The translations under genes and the position numbers were made by a program. Below, piece by piece: positions 18,228 through 63,921 of a DNA stretch of 64,000 nucleotides. The notes beneath the pieces were generated by a model that saw only the letters and a program-made list of their open reading frames with translations, did not search any database and was not told where the DNA came from. The first letter of the stretch is position 1. The number at the start of each line of letters is the position of its first letter. This stretch comes from a virus, in the IMG/VR virus record IMGVR_UViG_3300005529_000026, positions 30,357 through 94,356 of that record; one strand, written 5' to 3'.

Positions 18228-18596
18228 TTACTTTTTCTGATTTTCTCTGTCCCTGCACACTGTGCAGAGATAACGCCGGTACAGAGGGTCAGGTTCAAAC
18301 GTCTCAATGTGTTCAGCAGCACGAGTGCATTTCCAATCGCACCCGGACTGGCACAGCAGTGATTCCCCAGCGCTGCTTAGCTTCGTTTTGTCCTCACCAG
18401 ACAAAGGCTCAATCACGAACTCTGCTTTTCGTGCCTTGATGCTCAGGAGCCGAACTTGAAACGCCAGCAGGCGTTCGTGCAGCGTGAGTCGGCGCTTCCT
18501 TAGCTCTGGCGTCTTCGTCTCGGCCACAGGCTGCGCAGCGGCTAGGTCTGTGGGCATAGAGTTGAGTGTTTCGTTGACGGCTGAAGTGATGTCCAT
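18228..18596 (-). CDS. Zinc-finger-containing protein
   Basis: C-terminal Cys cluster and CTVC. Confidence 0.5.
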   Translation of the reverse strand: MDITSAVNETLNSMPTDLAAAQPVAETKTPELRKRRLTLHERLLAFQVRLLSIKARKAEFVIEPLSGEDKTKLSSAGESLLCQSGCDWKCTRAAEHIETFEPDPLYRRYLCTVCRDRENQKK

Positions 18597-31234: not shown

Positions 31235-31301
31235 TGGGGTGACGGATGGGACTCGAACCCACTACTGGCTGAAGCCAAGTGTCTTCCATACTTCCGTCAC
31301 C
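31235..31301 (-). ncRNA. 67-nt tRNA-like RNA with tRNA-His-type acceptor (G-1:C73) and no 7-nt anticodon loop
   Basis: GGUGACGG/CCGUCACC+CCA; T arm GUGGG-UUCGAGU-CCCAU; central hairpin UUGGC-UUCA-GCCAG. Confidence 0.65.
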
Positions 31302-32926: not shown

Positions 32927-33250
32927 GGGCGTTGAGGAACTGAGTCGCCGTCACTCAGTGCGTTAGCTGCTGATTAAGCAGCCGCCGCAGCCATAGCCAA
33001 AGGCTTGGCAGTTGTTTTTGTCCGCTGATTACGTCAGTCGGCTCACGGATTCGTCCATAGCACCTTCAACCAACCCGTCGAAACTTGGCACGCCCATCAA
33101 AGCCGCTCAGCCCATCTATCGCATGATGGCAGTCCCTAGAAGCACAGGTGCGCTTAACTGTCCGGGTCTGTTGTTCTGAGCGGCTATGGTGGACGTGGCG
33201 GGCATCGCAGCCCGCGTCCGAATCGGTAAAGCACTACTTCATACGAATCA
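32900..33250 (-). ncRNA. ssrA: Circularly permuted (two-piece) tmRNA; tag (A)AKPLAMAAAAA
   Basis: The 3' acceptor piece (GGAC-GCGGG..CCCGC-CACGUCC-ACCA, ending 33187) precedes the 5' piece (GGGCGUG..UUCGAC from 33095). G3:U70 is present, helix 2 pairs between the pieces, and the tag ORF is 33009-32974. Confidence 0.9.
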
Positions 33251-33591: not shown

Positions 33592-33666
33592 AAGCGGTCA
33601 CTCAGGGAATCGAACCCTGTTCCACGTTTTCCGTGAAGTGTGTCTTACCAATAGACGAAGTAGTAG
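33592..33666 (-). ncRNA. Degenerate tRNA-like element
   Basis: Intact D arm (GUCU..AGAC) and T arm (CAGGG-UUCGAUU-CCCUG); anticodon arm and acceptor stem non-canonical. Confidence 0.5.
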
Positions 33667-33677
33667 AAGGTTGTTGT

Positions 33678-34464: not shown

Positions 34465-34739
34465 TAAATGTCTGCGCGTTTTGGGTTGACCGATTTCGCG
34501 CCCCACGGAATATGCTCGCCCCTTACGGACGGCTACCCCTTTCATGTTTTGCCCTAGGGTTGAATCACAACCCCCGCCTACTTACAGCTTATGCTCCGGG
34601 GCGTTTCATCCCGACCTTATAGCGCTGAAAGATTCACTGCTTTCGACTTTGCAGCTTACTTGGTTTCTCGTCTGCACATTCCTAGACGACTTTTTGCGGC
34701 TAGTCGCCCAACCGTTGCGTTGATTTTTTAGGGCAAACT

Positions 34740-34817
34740 TGGTTGCGGGCACCGGAGTCGAACCGGCTATCTTTGCGTTATGAGCGCAACATGGTTATCC
34801 GTGTCCACTCGCCCGCA
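34740..34817 (-). tRNA. tRNA with CAU anticodon (Met or Ile2)
   Basis: UUGCG-CUCAUAA-CGCAA; T arm; CCA; lacks the initiator GGG/CCC anticodon stem. Confidence 0.85.
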
Positions 34818-34921
34818 GCACTTAAAAGAATATATTTTTACGAAAGCACGTATGTAGGATAGGCGTGTTACTGACGCCTCGTTTTAAGTCTGCGCCGCAC
34901 AGTGTGCGGAGCCTTCTGGAT

Positions 34922-35048
34922 TGCTGCCCTTGGTGGGAGTCGAACCCACATTTCAGGCTGAGCAGGGTACAGGTGCTAATCCGCTTCAGGCGGGGATAGT
35001 CTGTAAAGCCCGCGACAGCCAGCGTCCTGCCAATTAGACGACAACGGC
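34922..35048 (-). ncRNA. tRNA-like RNA with a 59-nt structured segment replacing the anticodon loop
   Basis: Acceptor GCCGUUG/CAAGGGC; D arm GUCU..GGAC; T arm GUGGG-UUCGACU-CCCAC; 3' AGCA. Confidence 0.6.
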
Positions 35049-35487
35049 GTAGCGGACAACTAGCGAACCAACCCAGTTCTCCTACATCAGATTTGCCTAC
35101 CGTTCGTGTAGACCGTCGTGCGTCAACCGCGTCCTGACTCTCGTGGACTTCAGCGGCAATCTTCTCCGCTTCGTCAATCGCGGCGTGCAGAACCTGATTG
35201 GCAGTGCGTAGGGCCATCGCGGTGCCCTTCGCCCGCAGAACTTCTTCCTCGTGCAGCGCATGACGTGCGGCGGCAGAACCCTTAGCTTCGAGATTGGACA
35301 GCGTGCGCGGGAAATACTTCTTCATCACAAAAAACGCGATGACCGCGATAACTCCAAGTGCTAAAATCGTTGACATCCTCAATGTCTCCTAGAAAAGTTT
35401 AGGAGCCGGTAAGCCTCAGCCCGGCTCCCTTGATTTTTCGGGGGCGTTGCGGCCCCTCCACCAGAGGCTTGTGTGTGTGTCTACTTC

Positions 35488-36354
35488 TTAGACCTGCACA
35501 ACCGGGTCGGTTTCGCTTTGCGAGTTGCCGCTGCCGAATTGCGCTTCCATCTCCTGCTCCATCTGCTGCTCGTAGCGCCGCGCTTCGACACTGAGCACGT
35601 ACTGCTGATAAAGCGGGCCGAACTCTCCGGGGTTGGCGACACGCTTCACGCTGGGGAACGTGAGAACGTGGTAGCTGAAGCCGCCATTGCCTTGCGGCAC
35701 AAAGACCGGCTTGATGGTGAAGCTGTAATCCCAGAGATTGAGAACCTTGTGCTTGCTCTCCTCTGGCTTCTTGCCCTGCTGAATGTCCTGCATCAGCAGA
35801 GTCTTCTCCATCTGCATGTCCTCAGCCATCTGCGTCCACAGAGCTTTCAGGGGCGAGATGCTGGTGCCGCTAATGTTCATCATGCGAGGTAACATCGTCT
35901 CGCGCTGAATGAACATCAGGTTCCACTTGTCGGAACACTCCGGCTTCTGCTTGCCGTTCCACTTGGAGTAGAGACACTCCGCGCAGGTCTTTGCCTTCGG
36001 AAACTCAACGAAGGGGCTAGGAACGATGCCATCGTTCGAGCGACATTCGGGCTTCGCCTTCAAGCCCGCACCTTTGATGAACTTCGCCCGGCCTTTGCGC
36101 AAGCGCAGAGGAACGACACGGATTTCGCTGTAGATGCGCCCACTGCGCACATCGTACAGGTCACCGACCTTCAGTTCCCGGTCAACACCCTTCTCGACAT
36201 CAAAACCGCTGGCAACGCCGAGGCGGGTGCTGCTCTTGTGAATCAGTTCGATGAAGCTGGGCTTGATGAGGGTATCTTCAAACCCAACCCCGCCCTCGTT
36301 CACAGCGCGGGCAAGGGCTTGATTCGGGTCAATGCGAACCAAATCAGTGCTCAT
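35488..36354 (-). CDS. Putative ssDNA-binding/annealing protein with Cys cluster
   Basis: PEC.S.DG..P...CAEC..S.W....PEC pattern and acidic tail; function inferred. Confidence 0.55.
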   Translation of the reverse strand: MSTDLVRIDPNQALARAVNEGGVGFEDTLIKPSFIELIHKSSTRLGVASGFDVEKGVDRELKVGDLYDVRSGRIYSEIRVVPLRLRKGRAKFIKGAGLKAKPECRSNDGIVPSPFVEFPKAKTCAECLYSKWNGKQKPECSDKWNLMFIQRETMLPRMMNISGTSISPLKALWTQMAEDMQMEKTLLMQDIQQGKKPEESKHKVLNLWDYSFTIKPVFVPQGNGGFSYHVLTFPSVKRVANPGEFGPLYQQYVLSVEARRYEQQMEQEMEAQFGSGNSQSETDPVVQV

Positions 36355-36429: not shown

Positions 36430-36458
36430 ATCATACCACTCACCTTTTGGTGTGTCAA
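36430..36458 (-). promoter_or_regulatory. Sigma70-type promoter
   Basis: TTGACA-17-TATGAT. Confidence 0.7.
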
Positions 36459-36479: not shown

Positions 36480-37631
36480 TTACTGGTATTCGGTGACTTC
36501 TTTGCCGTCCTTGGCCTTGCGGAGCAGGTAGGCTTCGCTGACCGACTTCAGGATGACGCGGCCCAGCTTGGGGTCTTCCCTCTCGAACAGGGGTTTCACT
36601 ACAACCCCTTCCCGCAGGTTGACTCCACACCCAGATACCGTTTCTACGCCGTTTGTAGCCGTTTCTAGCGCCTCGCGGGTGAACTGGCCTAGGTAGACCT
36701 CTGGAACCAGTTCGAGGCCCGCAAATCGGCTCCAAAGCTGAAGTGGCCCGTAGCTGAGGAAGTGACCCTGCCCCGGCTTGCCAACGTAGATGTCAAACAC
36801 TCGGAAACCAAGGTCGGTCGCGTAGCCCAAGTCCTGAATACCGTTTCCGTAGACCTCACCGACCACGAAGATTGCCTCGATTGGAGCACTACCTTCTCCG
36901 TTGAACTCCTGCATTTTCGTGCAGAGCTTGCGGAGCTTGGATTCCAAATCGTGCTTTTTGGCAGCCCGGATGTAGGTATTCCCGGCGTTGGCCTCGTTGT
37001 TTTCGATGATGAACCCGCGTGCCCCTAGTCCCTTGCTAGAAACAGCAAACTGGTCAGTTGCAGGCCAGTACACCGCCTGCATGAGCGTGCCGTGAATCTT
37101 CTCGGTCATCACGACCGGCTCGCCTTCTTGGAAGACGCGCTTGTACGCCTTGATGTTCTCAATGTCGTACCGCAGCAGGTTGAAGTCGCCGCGAGGCCGC
37201 TGAATCTGTCCTGCAAAGTGTGCAGGGATGGGCGGCTCGTACTTCGTGACGCCCAAAACTGTTGCACAGTCTGCGCCTTCGCACAGACACAGAGTTGTGG
37301 CCCCGGCGCTTTCTCCTATCCGAGCAAGCACCTTGCTGTACGGGTAGAGCAAGCCCTGCGAAAGCGTCTTGCGCAGCTTGATGGCCTTGACGCGATTCTT
37401 GGCCGGGCCAGCCAGCTTGCCGGTCAGTCCCAGTTCTTCGAGGATGTCTACCGGCACGATAGAGCCTTCGGGGATGTAGATGGCCAAATCCCCGGAGTTG
37501 AAACTGCCTTTCTGGATGACGCACTTGTAATCCGCGACGTTCGCGGCTACGATAAAGTCTGCTCCTTCAATAGGTTGCACGTCATCCACGCGCACAACTG
37601 GGCATGCAAAATCAGCCATTCTAACCTCCAT
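36480..37631 (-). CDS. ATP-dependent RNA ligase, DRB0094/Rnl2-like family
   Basis: N-terminal OB fold (PIEGAD.I...LRKTLSQGL), EKIHGT, GEVYG.GIQ, FDI, REGVVVKP, LKSVS..YL. Confidence 0.92.
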   Translation of the reverse strand: MEVRMADFACPVVRVDDVQPIEGADFIVAANVADYKCVIQKGSFNSGDLAIYIPEGSIVPVDILEELGLTGKLAGPAKNRVKAIKLRKTLSQGLLYPYSKVLARIGESAGATTLCLCEGADCATVLGVTKYEPPIPAHFAGQIQRPRGDFNLLRYDIENIKAYKRVFQEGEPVVMTEKIHGTLMQAVYWPATDQFAVSSKGLGARGFIIENNEANAGNTYIRAAKKHDLESKLRKLCTKMQEFNGEGSAPIEAIFVVGEVYGNGIQDLGYATDLGFRVFDIYVGKPGQGHFLSYGPLQLWSRFAGLELVPEVYLGQFTREALETATNGVETVSGCGVNLREGVVVKPLFEREDPKLGRVILKSVSEAYLLRKAKDGKEVTEYQ

Positions 37632-37881: not shown

Positions 37882-38697
37882 CTAGCCCTCCGTAGGAATT
37901 GGTCGTTGGTTGATGGTGAACAGGTCGCCTATATTCTCGTCGTACTGCACAATCTCGATAGAAGTTGCAGGGTCGTAGTTGAAAGCATTGAGCGCCACAA
38001 CCCTAGGGCCGGACAATTGCACCACCCGGTGTTTGTGGTAGTGGCCGAAGAAATGGAACCGAGGCTCGCCGCTGCGGTGCAGGTAATTGAAGCCGGGGCA
38101 ACCGCTGGCTTCTTCGTCGGGGTCGAGTCCTAGAATCTTCTTTATTTTCTCTGGGCAGTCACCTTGCTTGGGTAATGGCTGCATGCCGAATGGAGCCTCA
38201 TGGGTAATGAGCACGTCGAACTTGCCCGCGTCCGCTAGTTTGTCAACAGCAGATTTACGCACATGCAGTGCGGCAGCATTAGCCCCCATCCGCTGCCCAC
38301 CATGATTCAGCAGACTCATACGGGCCATCAGAATGCGCCCCTTGTTTTCATAGCTCTTGGGGCTGTAGTTTCCCCAAACTGAGCCGACCTTGATTCCTAG
38401 AACATCTGTGATGCCCCCGTCAGGCAGAAGCGTCATGTTGATGACACGCTGCGGGTCTTGCATCCAAGCATCTAGAAGCCGGTAGCTTTCGTGGTTGCCG
38501 GGGTTAACGTACGTCGTAATAGGTGCTGGCAGATGGCGTGTCCAAAACAGATTGAATTGCCTGCTTCCCACTCCGAGGTCACCGACATGAAGCACGGCGT
38601 CGAATTTCATTCCTAGCCGGTCTTCTAGGTTGATGAGGTACTCGTACATGCTGAGAATCTCTCCGTGCGTGTCGCCAACCACAGCGATGTTTTTCAT
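37882..38697 (-). CDS. Calcineurin-like metallophosphoesterase
   Basis: GDTHG, VGDLG, GNHE, THEAP, FGHYH. Confidence 0.88.
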   Translation of the reverse strand: MKNIAVVGDTHGEILSMYEYLINLEDRLGMKFDAVLHVGDLGVGSRQFNLFWTRHLPAPITTYVNPGNHESYRLLDAWMQDPQRVINMTLLPDGGITDVLGIKVGSVWGNYSPKSYENKGRILMARMSLLNHGGQRMGANAAALHVRKSAVDKLADAGKFDVLITHEAPFGMQPLPKQGDCPEKIKKILGLDPDEEASGCPGFNYLHRSGEPRFHFFGHYHKHRVVQLSGPRVVALNAFNYDPATSIEIVQYDENIGDLFTINQRPIPTEG

Positions 38698-38953: not shown

Positions 38954-39220
38954 TCATTTGCCGAGAATCTCCTTCATATCCATACCTGTTCCATTGCACG
39001 GCTGGCAGACAGCCGTACTCCACAGCAGCACGAGCGGGTTAATGTCTAGAAACCAGATGCGGCCCTGTTTATCTACGGCGTTAGGATTGGGCCTAACCCA
39101 AGTCGGGTGCCCGCCCGTTGCGCCGTACTCGTCCGTCTCTCCGGTTTTGACAAAGCCGCCTGTGATTCCAGCCTCAACCTCGCCGCGCCCTTTGCACACA
39201 GGACAAATCGGCAACATCAT
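38954..39220 (-). CDS. DnaJ-type zinc-finger protein
   Basis: CPVCKGRG...CQPCNGTG. Confidence 0.6.
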   Translation of the reverse strand: MMLPICPVCKGRGEVEAGITGGFVKTGETDEYGATGGHPTWVRPNPNAVDKQGRIWFLDINPLVLLWSTAVCQPCNGTGMDMKEILGK

Positions 39221-40356
39221 TCGCCGTCTCTCCTGAAGGACTCGTCTTTTGTGCAGTTCGGTCTAATCATCTTCCAGATGGTCGCTGTGGGGTCGCCGCC
39301 GTCTAGCATTTGAAAGCAAATCGAGGCGTACTGCCGACTCTCTGGCTGGTTGAAGTGAAACGCACACGCCTTGCGGTGCAGCCGGGTGTCTCCGTTGTGT
39401 ACGGGTCGGTTGATGTAAACTTCGTGTGCCGTTTCTAGAATCCGGTGGTATTCGTGGTCGAGCTTGTCACGCCACTCCGTGAGCCAAGCACGGAAATGCT
39501 CTGGCATGGTCTCATCGTTAATCCAAACGCGAATCTGGTCGTCTTTGCCTTCGGACATCAACTCCCAAACCGCTCTAGGATTCACGCCCGTCACGATGCG
39601 GTGTAGTCGAACATAGTCCTCGAATTTCACCTTAACCTTGACGGGCGGGCATGACGAGCCACGCGAGTAGGTCAGCACATATCCTTCGCGCCCGGCTTCA
39701 TTTTCAGTGGCAACCTCAGACAATGATTTCGAGTAACGCTGAACGACACGGACACCATTTGCTTTGGCCCACTTCCACAGTTCTTCGTAACCCATTTCCG
39801 CCCCGGTTCGGATGTTCACCATTCCGGTCAGAATGCACGTCTCGAAGTCGTACTTGCACACGATGCGGTTTTCGTCGTAGATAATCTCGAACAGAGGCGT
39901 CCAGCCTTCAGGCCACACCATGAACGAAAATGGGATAGGTTCGCGCTTCGCACGCAGCCAGTTAGTCGCCCACTTCGCCTGCGGGGAAGTGAACGAGCCG
40001 CGAGTGGCTATGCCGACGTACTCGCCGTACTGGTAAAGAATTCCTAACGAGCCGTCTAGCTTTTCTAGAACCAAAGGCTGAACGTTAGGTAGATTCGCTT
40101 CCATCGTTTCGGGAATAGAAGCGGTGTTGAGGTTGTGGAATTTCTTGTACGGGCGTGCAATGACGTTCCCTTGCTTGTCTACAATTAGTCCACGGCAATA
40201 ATCAATTGTGCCGTCACCCCAAGTCCCATAAATCTGGGCGTAGGGCGTGTAGTTGTAGATTTCAAGAGGAAGTTCAGGATGCTGCTGAACGGAAATTAGC
40301 CCGTTATCAATGTGCTGCTTGAGAAGGTTAACATCGAGCAGTTGAGAGATGAGCAT
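39217..40356 (-). CDS. T4 Rnl1-type RNA ligase
   Basis: IYNYT, CRGLI, RPYKKFHN, EKLDGSL, TRGSF, FEII, REGYV, KVK..DY; likely start ATG 40356. Confidence 0.92.
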   Translation of the reverse strand: MLISQLLDVNLLKQHIDNGLISVQQHPELPLEIYNYTPYAQIYGTWGDGTIDYCRGLIVDKQGNVIARPYKKFHNLNTASIPETMEANLPNVQPLVLEKLDGSLGILYQYGEYVGIATRGSFTSPQAKWATNWLRAKREPIPFSFMVWPEGWTPLFEIIYDENRIVCKYDFETCILTGMVNIRTGAEMGYEELWKWAKANGVRVVQRYSKSLSEVATENEAGREGYVLTYSRGSSCPPVKVKVKFEDYVRLHRIVTGVNPRAVWELMSEGKDDQIRVWINDETMPEHFRAWLTEWRDKLDHEYHRILETAHEVYINRPVHNGDTRLHRKACAFHFNQPESRQYASICFQMLDGGDPTATIWKMIRPNCTKDESFRRDGE

Positions 40357-41210
40357 TTTGACCAATTCTCCGGCGCGGGCAGGGTCTTCTTGAGTTGAAG
40401 ACCTTCTTCCTTGGCACTGTCCATGTGCGCAATTTCTCTGACGGTATATTCCCGCCAGCACAGCGGGTGTCCGGTACGTGCAGGGCTTACAACTGAATCG
40501 AATTGCTTTGTCGTAAGGATGGTTTTCGCAACGAACGCAGCGGAGCCGTCTGACTGCGGGAATACTTCTCCCATTACTACGCCGTCGCGGTTGTGCCATG
40601 CCCAGCCACGCTCGCCGCAGTAGAGCAGGCGCATCGTCTCGCCCCCAACCGGGAAGCGGAATGCACGAGTACGCTGCTCTAGGCGTTTGTTCATGTGATT
40701 CGTGACGATGAACCTGATAAGTTGCATTTTGGCCCCCTAGCTCTGCCCAAATCCTTCCGCAGTCCACACCCAATGTAAAAGCTGGCGCGGTGTGCAGTTC
40801 AACGCTAAGCTATTGTCCACGGCAAGCGCCATGACGAAGCCGACAGGTAGAAGCACGGCTGCGATAGCGCGAAAGGGAAGACCGAGATAGCGACCGATGA
40901 TTTTGAGCACCTTCATTTCAGTTCCTCCAAGATGTGCCACACGAGACCATTTGCATCTTGCAATGTGGCAATGCAGTCGTAGGTTTTAGAGCTATCTCCG
41001 AACGGGACGCCGGTAAAGGCAACGATAATCACCCTAGGAACCGTTGGCTTGGCGTCGAAATCGTCTGGGTGAATCTCCCAAAGAATGAGATTGCCGCGCT
41101 GGATTTGAACGTCCAGCACGGCAGCCTTCGGGTGTAGTGGGAGAAGGTACGTTCCGACTTGAAACGGCAACTTGTGCTTGTGGATGACATTCTCAACGAT
41201 GCGCGACATT

Positions 41211-42161
41211 TTAGAAATTCCCTTCTGCAACTTGGTAGACCTTGACTCCATTTGCTCGCCACATATCAACAACACGTTGGCGGTCATCAATCACGAAGGC
41301 GATGCGCTCCTTCGGGAGTCGGTTTAGAATTTCTTGTTTCACCACGGTGTCGTCTCGCTTGTCGCCGCCCTTGCGCATGAAGATGTGGCGATATTTGACG
41401 CCGTACTTTTCTAGCCAAGTAGTTGTTTTGAACCCGGCCTTGTCCATCGGTCGTCCTGACACGATGACGACTTCGTATTCCTTGGACTCGCTTAGAGCTT
41501 TCACCCACTTCAGAACGGCTTCAATCGGTTCATCTTCGTTGCAGTGCTCGAAGAAAGCGTTCCAGTCTTTTTTTGCTCTGCCGGTGCCCCTGCAAGTAGG
41601 GCAGCGAGAATCTTGAGTGCCGCCGTTTCCGTTGCACGCTGTGCAAGGGCGTGACTCTACAAACTGTCTACGCGCCCGCACATCGGACAGGGTGCCATCC
41701 ATGTCCACCAAGACCAGTTGCTTGTCTACGGGAAAATGAAGCAGCCCATTGTCCAGCGCCATGCGCTCGATGACATGACGGCCCACCCGCGCTTTGCCTT
41801 CACGTTGCGCGTCCCGGCGAATCAGTTCCTCGATGCGAATATCTAGAAATGACGAGTCCATCACAAGAGGAACGCCGACACTCTGCGCTAGCTGATGCCA
41901 GCGCTCGCGGGTTCTGTGGTTCAGGTTGGTGTTGTCCACGACAACGCTCTTGCCAGCAGCTAGGGCTGACAATGCCCGGTCTTCAGCGATGCGGCGCACT
42001 TGCTTTTCGGTCTCGTGACTGAAACGATATTCAGGATTGAGTTCTAGCCGAATGTCGTCCCAATTGACGCGAACCCAACCCTCAGCTTCTAGATTCTTGG
42101 CTTCTGTTGATTTCCCTGATGCAGGAAGGCCGACAAGCAGCAACAGCACTTGCTTATTCAT
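41211..42161 (-). CDS. Polynucleotide kinase/3'-phosphatase (T4 PseT-like) with inserted Zn finger
   Basis: GLPASGKST kinase P-loop; DMDGT, SGR, K and DDR HAD motifs. Confidence 0.93.
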   Translation of the reverse strand: MNKQVLLLLVGLPASGKSTEAKNLEAEGWVRVNWDDIRLELNPEYRFSHETEKQVRRIAEDRALSALAAGKSVVVDNTNLNHRTRERWHQLAQSVGVPLVMDSSFLDIRIEELIRRDAQREGKARVGRHVIERMALDNGLLHFPVDKQLVLVDMDGTLSDVRARRQFVESRPCTACNGNGGTQDSRCPTCRGTGRAKKDWNAFFEHCNEDEPIEAVLKWVKALSESKEYEVVIVSGRPMDKAGFKTTTWLEKYGVKYRHIFMRKGGDKRDDTVVKQEILNRLPKERIAFVIDDRQRVVDMWRANGVKVYQVAEGNF

Positions 42162-62764: not shown

Positions 62765-63682
62765 TTAGAGATTTTTCAGCGGGCTGACACGCTCCAACTC
62801 CTCCTGTTGGTATTTGGTGCTGATATGCAGATAACCCTTCAACACATCGAGAGATTTGTGGCCGGTCATGGATTGCAGCTTACCGATGTCGCCGCCGTTT
62901 TCTAGGTAGAGAGTGCAGCAAGCGTGACGCAGAGTGTGCGGGCTGAGAGTTTTGATGCCGAGACGACGGCGCACAGCCGCGAACGCATGGTCGAACATGA
63001 ATACTGTGGCTGGTTCGCCGGACTGGTTGACGAAAACACGGTCACTCTTGGCGAAATGCTCTCGCCTACGTAGCCAGCCTTTCATAAGGCGCACCATGTC
63101 CTTTGTGATTCCCACAAGACGCATGTTCGTTTTTCCCTCCTCCGGCACGATGATGGTCTGTTCATCGAGCTTTAGGTGTTCCAACTTCAAATGACAAAGC
63201 TCTCCGACACGCATTCCGGTTTCAAGCATGAGAGAAAACGCAACATAATTGCGGTAACCGGAGCGCTTGTTCACGTTGAAAGCAGCTTTGAAAGCCTTCA
63301 TGTCCTTGCGCTCAGGAATCACCTTCCGACTGGGGGTTTTAGGTATAGGCGGGAGCAGCTTGTACCACGGCTTCAGTCCATCCTCTTGGCAGTCTTCACT
63401 TTTTTCAACCCAGCGAAAAAGCGCCCGCACCGACCGAAGGATTTTGTAGCGCGTGGCGTCACTGATGTTCTTGTTGTCCTGAATCGAATCTAGGAAATCG
63501 AGCACGTCAGGACGCTTCATGGCTTCGTACGTGATGATTCCGCGCTCGCGCATGAACTCGAAGAACCACTTCAAGTCCCAGCGGTAGCTCTCAAGCGTGC
63601 GCGGGCGTGCGAACTTTCTTGCCCCTTCCCGGCCCCTCTCCCGCGACCTCAGAAACAGCCTTTCAAGCTCCTCGAAGCTCAT
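62765..63682 (-). CDS. Tyrosine recombinase/integrase
   Basis: SAM-like N-terminus, TGMRVGEL, K, HTLRH, GH, Y. Confidence 0.93.
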   Translation of the reverse strand: MSFEELERLFLRSRERGREGARKFARPRTLESYRWDLKWFFEFMRERGIITYEAMKRPDVLDFLDSIQDNKNISDATRYKILRSVRALFRWVEKSEDCQEDGLKPWYKLLPPIPKTPSRKVIPERKDMKAFKAAFNVNKRSGYRNYVAFSLMLETGMRVGELCHLKLEHLKLDEQTIIVPEEGKTNMRLVGITKDMVRLMKGWLRRREHFAKSDRVFVNQSGEPATVFMFDHAFAAVRRRLGIKTLSPHTLRHACCTLYLENGGDIGKLQSMTGHKSLDVLKGYLHISTKYQQEELERVSPLKNL

Positions 63683-63878
63683 TTTTTGCCTCCCGAATCA
63701 ACTGACTTTGACCTTTTTTCTGCTAAATCATTGCATCTACAAGCATTATACTTGCACTACAAGTCATTCAATGCGGCAGGCTAACTGCTTGACCGTATTG
63801 AATAAACCCTTCGTATCCTACAAATTGCAATGTTTTTGCAGAGTATCACAAGCAATCGCGTTGCGTCAATCGCAAGCA

Positions 63879-63921
63879 ATTGATTAAGAGTCAGTTGCTC
63901 TGCCAGTTGAGCTACGCGCCC
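63879..63921 (-). pseudogene. 5' half of tRNA-Lys(CUU); probable att site
   Basis: GGGCGCG-UA-GCUC..GAGC-A-ACUGA-CUCUUAA-UCA, then no T arm or acceptor 3' strand; about 200 bp from the integrase start. Confidence 0.8.

Follow-up and report, generated by a model that had tools for sequence, protein, structure and literature searches.

The locus described here raises the question of what becomes of a phage tRNA gene when its anticodon loop gives way to a long hairpin: does it specify an RNA that no longer decodes, a tRNA that is restored by splicing, a signal for RNA processing, or nothing of use at all? The locus lies in a 64,000-nt stretch of DNA (hereafter, the window), which is part of a 94,356-bp virus record in IMG/VR, and centres on a tRNA-shaped gene on the minus strand (Table 1). 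We tentatively favour the view that this element encodes a non-decoding, tRNA-scaffolded RNA, which would be processed as a tRNA and in which the hairpin, or rod, would be the working or binding part. The element is a lead, not a result.

The tRNA core of the element, i.e. acceptor stem, D arm, T arm and the bases making tertiary contacts, is intact. The Rfam tRNA model (RF00005) matches the element globally (model positions 1-71) with 39.4 bits and an E-value of 8e-5 over the whole window, which passes the gathering score of 29 for a cloverleaf and, the insert notwithstanding, exceeds the scores of the phage's own tRNA-Met (29.9 bits) and tRNA-Tyr (29.4 bits). The alignment leaves a single unaligned block of 58 nt, located in the anticodon loop, and ARAGORN reports the element only when introns are allowed, missing it in default mode. 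The original prediction of canonical D and T arms is borne out by both the RF00005 match and the sequence itself (D arm, GUCU-AAUUGGCA-GGAC; T arm, GUGGG-UUCGACU-CCCAC), and the acceptor stem (GCCGUUG/CAAGGGC) forms six of its seven pairs, as predicted, with G4.G69 as the exception. The elbow and core bases U8, A14, A15, G18, G19, A21, G26, U48, G53, U54, U55, C56, A58 and C61 are all present. The anticodon stem (CUGGC/GCCUG) carries a U.U mismatch (U28.U42) and is extended by two further pairs (U-A and G-C). Its strands indeed enclose 59 nt in place of a 7-nt loop with U33 and a purine at position 37. The 3' end likewise reads AGCA, as had been noted, and resolves into the discriminator A followed by GCA. 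All six regular tRNAs of the genome (Lys, Tyr, Ile, Leu, Met, Thr) encode CCA, as does a 64-nt tRNA-like RNA of the same cluster; the element does not, its GCA being one substitution away from CCA. Given that a contig from a second study (DNA run X2) is identical to the window over positions 34906-35099, the sequence of the element is no assembly artefact.

Table 1. Features at and around the tRNA-shaped gene, in order of descending position in the window.
Feature	Position	Strand	Basis or remark
Pnkp	41211-42161	-	same strand as the element, upstream of it
Rnl1-type ligase	39217-40773	-	same strand as the element, upstream of it
Metallophosphoesterase	37882-38697	-	same strand as the element, upstream of it
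Rnl2/Rnl5-type ligase, PHA02142 OB domain	36480-37631	-	same strand as the element, upstream of it
Promoter-like site, TTGACA-17-TATGAT	36430-36458	-	upstream of the 288-aa ORF; 11/12 hexamer matches, consensus scan only
288-aa protein, Pam3 gp34-like	35488-36354	-	same strand as the element, upstream of it
Small ORF, N-terminal membrane helix and helical Ala/Glu-rich part	34822-35376	-	open frame through the element
tRNA-shaped gene (acceptor stem, D arm, extended anticodon arm, T arm, discriminator A)	34925-35048	-	Rfam; ARAGORN with introns
Rod: anticodon stem prolonged as 22-bp irregular hairpin	34954-35022	-	minimum-energy (MFE) fold
59-nt insert in place of 7-nt anticodon loop (element positions 32-90)	34959-35017	-	unaligned Rfam block
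GCA in place of CCA	34922-34924	-	sequence; other 3' ends of the genome compared
Hairpin/palindrome	34892-34912		13 nt downstream of the element; one GCACA(C/G)TGTGC copy
tRNA-Met(CAU)	34740-34817	-	next gene downstream of the element
Circularly permuted (two-piece) tmRNA	32974-33249	-	RF04321, 83.4 bits
64-nt tRNA-like RNA	31238-31301	-	5 nt after tRNA-Tyr; tRNA-Sec model 27.9 bits, E 0.017

Folding of the arm alone joins the anticodon stem and the insert into one hairpin with helices of 5, 5, 5, 3 and 4 bp, internal loops of 2x1, 3x1, 1x3 and 3x2 nt, and the apical loop CUGAA. The minimum free energy of this fold is -27.8 kcal/mol (z = -3.79; as stable in 0 of 200 shuffles), a single structure accounts for 58% of the ensemble, and near-optimal alternative folds preserve the same rod. 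The whole element folds as a cloverleaf with this rod as its anticodon arm, albeit with a z-score of only -1.76. According to these computed folds, the insert is clearly non-random and forms a single well-defined rod. The original prediction had set against itself a simple decayed tRNA with a random insert; decay is a serious rival, as discussed below, whereas 'random' does not describe an insert with this z-score. Of the hairpins predicted earlier, CCGC/GCGG is used at the apex of the rod and AGCA/UGCU is unused, while the proposed pairing of GCGGG with CCCGC is replaced in the minimum-energy fold by pairing of GCGGG with CCUGC. We found no strand asymmetry: the plus strand folds equally well (z = -3.53) and the rod, a quasi-palindrome at the DNA level, has only one G.U pair, so that the fold alone indicates neither the strand nor the level (RNA or DNA) that matters. 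No other copy of the insert exists in the 94-kb genome, and we therefore rejected a repeated mobile element. An antisense role towards a phage target was dropped because the longest perfect complement to the insert within the phage measures only 11 nt.

Sequence sharing and layout suggest a Gln-like ancestry. The 16-nt D arm of the element is exactly common to 93 IMG/VR loci, nearly all of them tRNA-Gln and a few tRNA-Glu. In these loci, nucleotide 26 is G, the anticodon stem has 5 bp and the variable loop, often AAAU, has 4 nt, and the element, when read in the Rfam register, has the same G26, 5-bp stem and AAAU variable loop as phage tRNA-Gln genes. Given this match in layout, we consider the canonical register ancestral and the old loop wholly replaced within it. 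The acceptor stem of the element (G1-C72, with A73) is un-Gln-like.

The virus record appears to be a soil prophage in its integrated state, since a tRNA-Lys(CUU) gene, a 41-nt att copy and a tyrosine integrase are found at its ends. The complete tRNA-Lys(CUU) is situated at the left end (genome positions 43-118), 41 nt of its 5' part, up to and including the anticodon loop, recur unchanged at the right end (window positions 63921-63881), and the integrase ORF (62765-63682, minus strand; PF00589, 115.6 bits) adjoins this copy. A weak Rfam 'tRNA' match at 63853-63921 (minus strand) corresponds to the att copy and was rejected as a gene. Closer to the element, the 288-aa neighbour was considered as a nuclease and rejected: it has no PDB or Pfam match, Atlas groups it with Pam3 gp34-like proteins of unknown function, and a protein search found no viral relative. 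A transcript that spans the small ORF, the element and the tRNAs after it probably begins at the strong promoter-like site upstream of its ORF. Past this site, the minus strand has a single terminator-like hairpin (35347-35335), which falls into the first codons of the small ORF, and none was detected from there to the element. Together with the promoter-like site, this makes co-transcription plausible.

Downstream of the element, the same strand carries tRNA-Met, tRNA-Leu, tRNA-Ile, the permuted tmRNA, an HNH endonuclease, tRNA-Tyr and the 64-nt tRNA-like RNA. Caulobacter phages CcrColossus and CcrPW also carry a permuted tmRNA. A tRNA-like remnant (33600-33672, minus strand) immediately follows tRNA-Ile. 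It has a D arm (GUCU-AUUGGUA-AGAC), a T arm (CAGGG-UUCGAUU-CCCUG) and a stem whose loop reads GAAAA; its acceptor stem is poor, and Rfam gives no match at E up to 1. The 64-nt RNA has a perfect 8-bp acceptor helix, followed by CCA; its T arm is canonical, and in place of an anticodon arm it has a stem (CU(U)GGC/GCCAG) closed by a UUCA tetraloop. The palindrome next to the element, GCACA(C/G)TGTGC, occurs seven times in the window (positions 18255, 27703, 31762, 34897, 49886, 54347 and 59563), compared to 0.06 expected from shuffling.

How might a tRNA gene of this kind give rise to a scaffold RNA? In the reading we tentatively prefer, the anticodon loop of a tRNA-derived gene would have been replaced by 59 nt that extend the stem coaxially into a long irregular hairpin. 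The element would be transcribed jointly with the upstream ORFs and the downstream tRNAs, and RNase P and the 3' trimming enzymes would excise it, its upper half being tRNA-like. The L-shaped product, about 124 nt long and with an 'anticodon' arm of excessive length, would persist and could not read a codon. Rather, the tRNA body would provide processing and stability, and the rod would act as the working part or as a protein-binding site, as in the laboratory 'tRNA scaffold'. In this engineered design, reportedly described by Ponchon and Dardel in 2007, a structured RNA is said to replace the anticodon stem-loop of a tRNA, which the cell then processes and stabilises as a tRNA. Similar to the engineered scaffold, the acceptor stem, D arm and T arm of the element are intact and its anticodon stem runs into a foreign hairpin. 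In contrast, the element is natural and phage-encoded.

Several observations are consistent with a non-decoding scaffold RNA. The tRNA match is global and all conserved tertiary bases are present. The internal loops of the rod are asymmetric, whereas symmetric loops would be expected of a perfect palindrome decayed by point mutation, which favours a scaffold. The same cluster also encodes a second anticodon-less tRNA-like RNA, as the 64-nt RNA appears to be another tRNA mimic of this sort. The original prediction had already raised a tRNA-scaffolded non-coding RNA or decoy; the anatomy, an intact core with one well-defined rod, would fit this proposal, against which stands that none of the searches described below found a homologue. 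Provided that the RNA is produced and stable, the 'tRNA scaffold' design would have a natural counterpart here, with a tRNA body carrying a foreign hairpin, and the short list of phage tRNA-like RNAs without a decoding role would grow by one. Positioned beside a full RNA-repair set and a phage tmRNA, the element offers a test case for whether phages of this kind employ tRNA mimics or ligase-dependent splicing against host tRNA-cutting defences.

The rival that survives best is a dying tRNA gene, which we regard as possible, if less probable than a scaffold: a Gln-like ancestor would have been inactivated by a hairpin-forming insertion into its anticodon loop and would now be drifting, with any transcript being a functionless by-product. 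The two stem mismatches (G4.G69 and U28.U42) and the GCA found where the six regular tRNAs and the 64-nt RNA have CCA look like relaxed constraint and speak for decay rather than for a scaffold, as does the missing anticodon. Selection on the minus strand at the RNA level is unsupported, given that the rod folds as well on the plus strand, with a single G.U pair; a DNA-level quasi-palindrome that folds on both strands alike would suit a relic. The z-score of the whole element and the presence of the weak tRNA-like remnant in the cluster also count against a scaffold, and the stop codon missing from the adjacent small ORF, whether lost or never present, suggests sloppy upkeep of the stretch. 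However, a decaying gene does not readily account for tertiary-contact bases and arms that are all intact, for an insert that is exactly coaxial with the stem and has left no trace of the old loop, or for asymmetric internal loops and one dominant fold, which are unlike a random or decayed insert; nor is the insert a mobile sequence repeated in the genome. Should the element prove to be a relic, it would show a manner in which phage tRNA genes die.

A relic would also be in keeping with the orphan status of the element in all collections searched. We obtained no blastn match to positions 34600-35500 among 50,697 phage records. Protein searches with the 186-aa small ORF returned only the ORF itself, and those with its first 95 aa returned nothing. 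Loci with related RNA ligases in IMG/VR and metagenomes are only 27-45% identical, and none of them has an interrupted tRNA. Exact 17-18-mers of the insert gave either no matches or chance matches within coding regions; a 17-mer from the tRNA-Met arm matched 36 loci, none of them close. A gapped pattern running from the D arm to the T-loop produced one chance match in 185,579 prokaryote genomes, and a covariance model of the element (R1) retrieved nothing but ordinary tRNAs from four related phage genomes.

A tRNA with an intron, as put forward in the original prediction, is unlikely. In this scenario, the insert would be cut out by an endonuclease of host or phage origin, such as an anticodon nuclease or an RNase that is specific for double strands and acts on the rod, Pnkp would heal the ends, the Rnl1-type ligase would seal them, and the product would decode. 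The phage ligases on which the prediction relied are present: Pnkp and the Rnl1-type and Rnl2/Rnl5-type ligases cluster with the metallophosphoesterase 1.4-7 kb upstream, on the strand of the element. Repair enzymes of this type are known to mend tRNAs cut by host anticodon nucleases (review, PMC7824862), and given this role, Pnkp and the ligases do not require the element to account for their presence. Searches of the 94-kb phage genome for the splicing proteins EndA (PF01974) and RtcB (PF01139) were negative, and both controls gave matches.

ARAGORN, when run with introns as the original prediction had advised, does call a tRNA-Arg(CCU) with a 50-nt intron after position 33. However, this call depends on a stem shifted by four bases, which is enabled by a GCUG-GCUG repeat and comprises four Watson-Crick pairs and one G.U, whereas the 7-bp stem with which it competes has six Watson-Crick pairs; in addition, the call leaves the tRNA without nucleotide 26 and with a 7-nt variable region. 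Among the Arg codons of the phage, AGG, which such a tRNA would decode, is the least used (0.33% of codons), and CCA is not encoded. The same program setting also yields an evidently false tRNA-Phe(GAA) with a 585-nt intron in this genome (59783-60464, minus strand), which has a poor acceptor stem and no Rfam tRNA or group I match and calls for caution with ARAGORN intron calls. We also enumerated every single excision in the canonical and shifted registers. In the canonical register, none of them leaves a loop with U33 and a purine at position 37, the loops with U33 giving solely the anticodon GCU with C37. The shifted register permits the anticodons CCU, GCU, GUU or GUC and hence no unique anticodon, although one of its products, the Asp-like loop CUGUCGC, would place the insert at the canonical 37/38 site.

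The architecture of the insert argues against known splicing routes. A bulge-helix-bulge has a 4-bp helix with a 3-nt bulge on the 3' side of either strand. In the rod, the 3x1 and 1x3 loops flank a helix of 5 bp and have their 3-nt sides 5' of the strands, i.e. the wrong handedness, and we rejected this motif. Group I introns are built around a catalytic core (P3-P8) and require about 200 nt or more; at 59 nt, the insert is too short, as the original prediction had stated, and tRNA is the only Rfam family matched at E up to 1. While bacterial group I introns in tRNA-Leu(UAA) and tRNA-Arg(CCU) share with the insert the anticodon-loop position in a bacterial-type tRNA, they differ from it by their length and by their group I match. 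We also rejected a tRNA-shaped insert: there is no second tRNA match inside it, no UUCRA T-loop, no acceptor-like end and no CCA, and removal by RNase P and RNase Z would not be applicable.

Non-group-I introns are on record in phage tRNAs. The tRNAs of Lak megaphages contain 'enigmatic' introns, and inserts in phage tRNAs have been described as tRNA-shaped and removable by tRNA end-processing enzymes (Devoto et al. 2019, PMC6784885). Similar to these, the element has a short, non-self-splicing insert in the anticodon region of a phage tRNA, and an RNA ligase is encoded in the genome. However, the enigmatic introns are described as tRNA-shaped or possible tRNAs themselves and leave a normal anticodon loop, whereas the insert studied here is a plain rod with neither T-loop nor CCA and leaves no canonical loop in the canonical register. 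The searches above found no relative of the phage, with or without the insert, that would fix the junction. A protein-dependent bacterial-virus tRNA intron of a new kind, in which the rod would be the recognition element of an endonuclease and Pnkp and the Rnl1-type ligase would rejoin the halves, seems more doubtful still. If true, RNA repair would double as splicing, Pnkp and Rnl1 being so far known only as repair enzymes.

Comparison with other RNAs offers partial parallels. The stable RNAs rnaC and rnaD of phage T4 (species 1 and 2), a precedent for a scaffold RNA, are produced from the end of its tRNA cluster, measure 119-139 nt and have unknown function. Like the element, they are small RNAs encoded among phage tRNAs, and a T arm together with an acceptor-like stem is found in rnaC; however, rnaC scores only 17.5 bits on a tRNA-type model, compared to 39.4 bits on the tRNA model and a full cloverleaf for the element. 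Model R1 gave no match in T4 positions 69000-76000 at E up to 1, and by this comparison the location in a tRNA cluster is the only shared trait. YrlA and other bacterial Y RNAs contain a tRNA-like module and a long stem that binds Ro, and are often found near RNA-repair genes. The element resembles YrlA in joining a tRNA-like elbow to a long helix, but YrlA is permuted, ends in the long stem and has a loop-closed acceptor, whereas the element is linear and ends at the acceptor. No TROVE/Ro domain was detected in the phage genome. The tRNA-like domain of tmRNA lacks a D stem, has a G3.U70 pair for alanine identity and is combined with a tag reading frame. We rejected the element as such a domain: it has a full D stem, its pair 3-70 is C-G, it matches no tmRNA model, and the tmRNA of the phage is a separate gene.

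A further reading, that the element acts solely as a processing signal, concerns the small ORF. In line with the original prediction, the frame of this upstream membrane-protein ORF does read through the element, being open from 35382/35376 (ATG at 35376) to the stop codon at 34822-34824. Its codon log-odds are positive to about 35110-35090 and then near zero or negative, leaving the frame open for about 85 codons past the end of the coding signal, and stop codons in the other frames are clustered at 35100-35075. The open frame could hence stem from a recent loss of the stop codon or from a 1-nt error in the source assembly; the contig from the second study covers 34906-35099 alone. With a genuinely open frame and RNase P cleavage at 35048/35049, the mRNA would be left without a stop codon and become a substrate for tmRNA, which we put forward as an idea and not as a finding. 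The tRNA-like body would then be an RNase P and 3'-end signal separating the upstream mRNA from the tRNA genes, and tmRNA, including the permuted one of the phage, would handle the ribosomes, keeping the membrane protein low. That the coding signal ends some 40-60 nt ahead of the element while the frame stays open down to 34822, that a permuted tmRNA lies 1.7 kb downstream, and that ORF, element and tRNAs share one strand with no terminator from the first codons of the ORF to the element would all agree with such a device, but it is pure inference, a stop loss or assembly error would explain the open frame, and the well-formed rod is left unexplained; we consider it very unlikely.

A survey of 1.22 Mb of phage tRNA loci with ARAGORN, introns being allowed, produced 15 'intron' calls among 1,099 tRNAs, only one of which is comparable to the element (L069:697-806, minus strand; IMGVR_UViG_3300022745_000032). 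It has the same 16-nt D arm, a G1-C72 acceptor stem and a Y-shaped insert of 43 nt with two hairpins. A search for the Rnl1 family in its 67.8-kb genome gave no match, nor did the control of this search. Another locus with the same D arm, L054, was rejected as a counterpart, its enlarged anticodon region being an 18-nt loop; there, too, neither the search for the Rnl1 family nor its control matched anything. Between tRNA-Cys and tRNA-Leu of a further virus lies an 80-nt tRNA-like sequence that ARAGORN does not call (L151:1413-1492; IMGVR_UViG_3300045136_000054); its 7-bp acceptor stem is perfect and its T arm canonical, but its D region is odd. Finally, an uncultured phage of 189 kb carries a GOLLD RNA (L006:6358-6744; 214 bits) within a large array of tRNAs, and one tRNA of this locus has 25 nt in common with the T arm and acceptor strand of the element.
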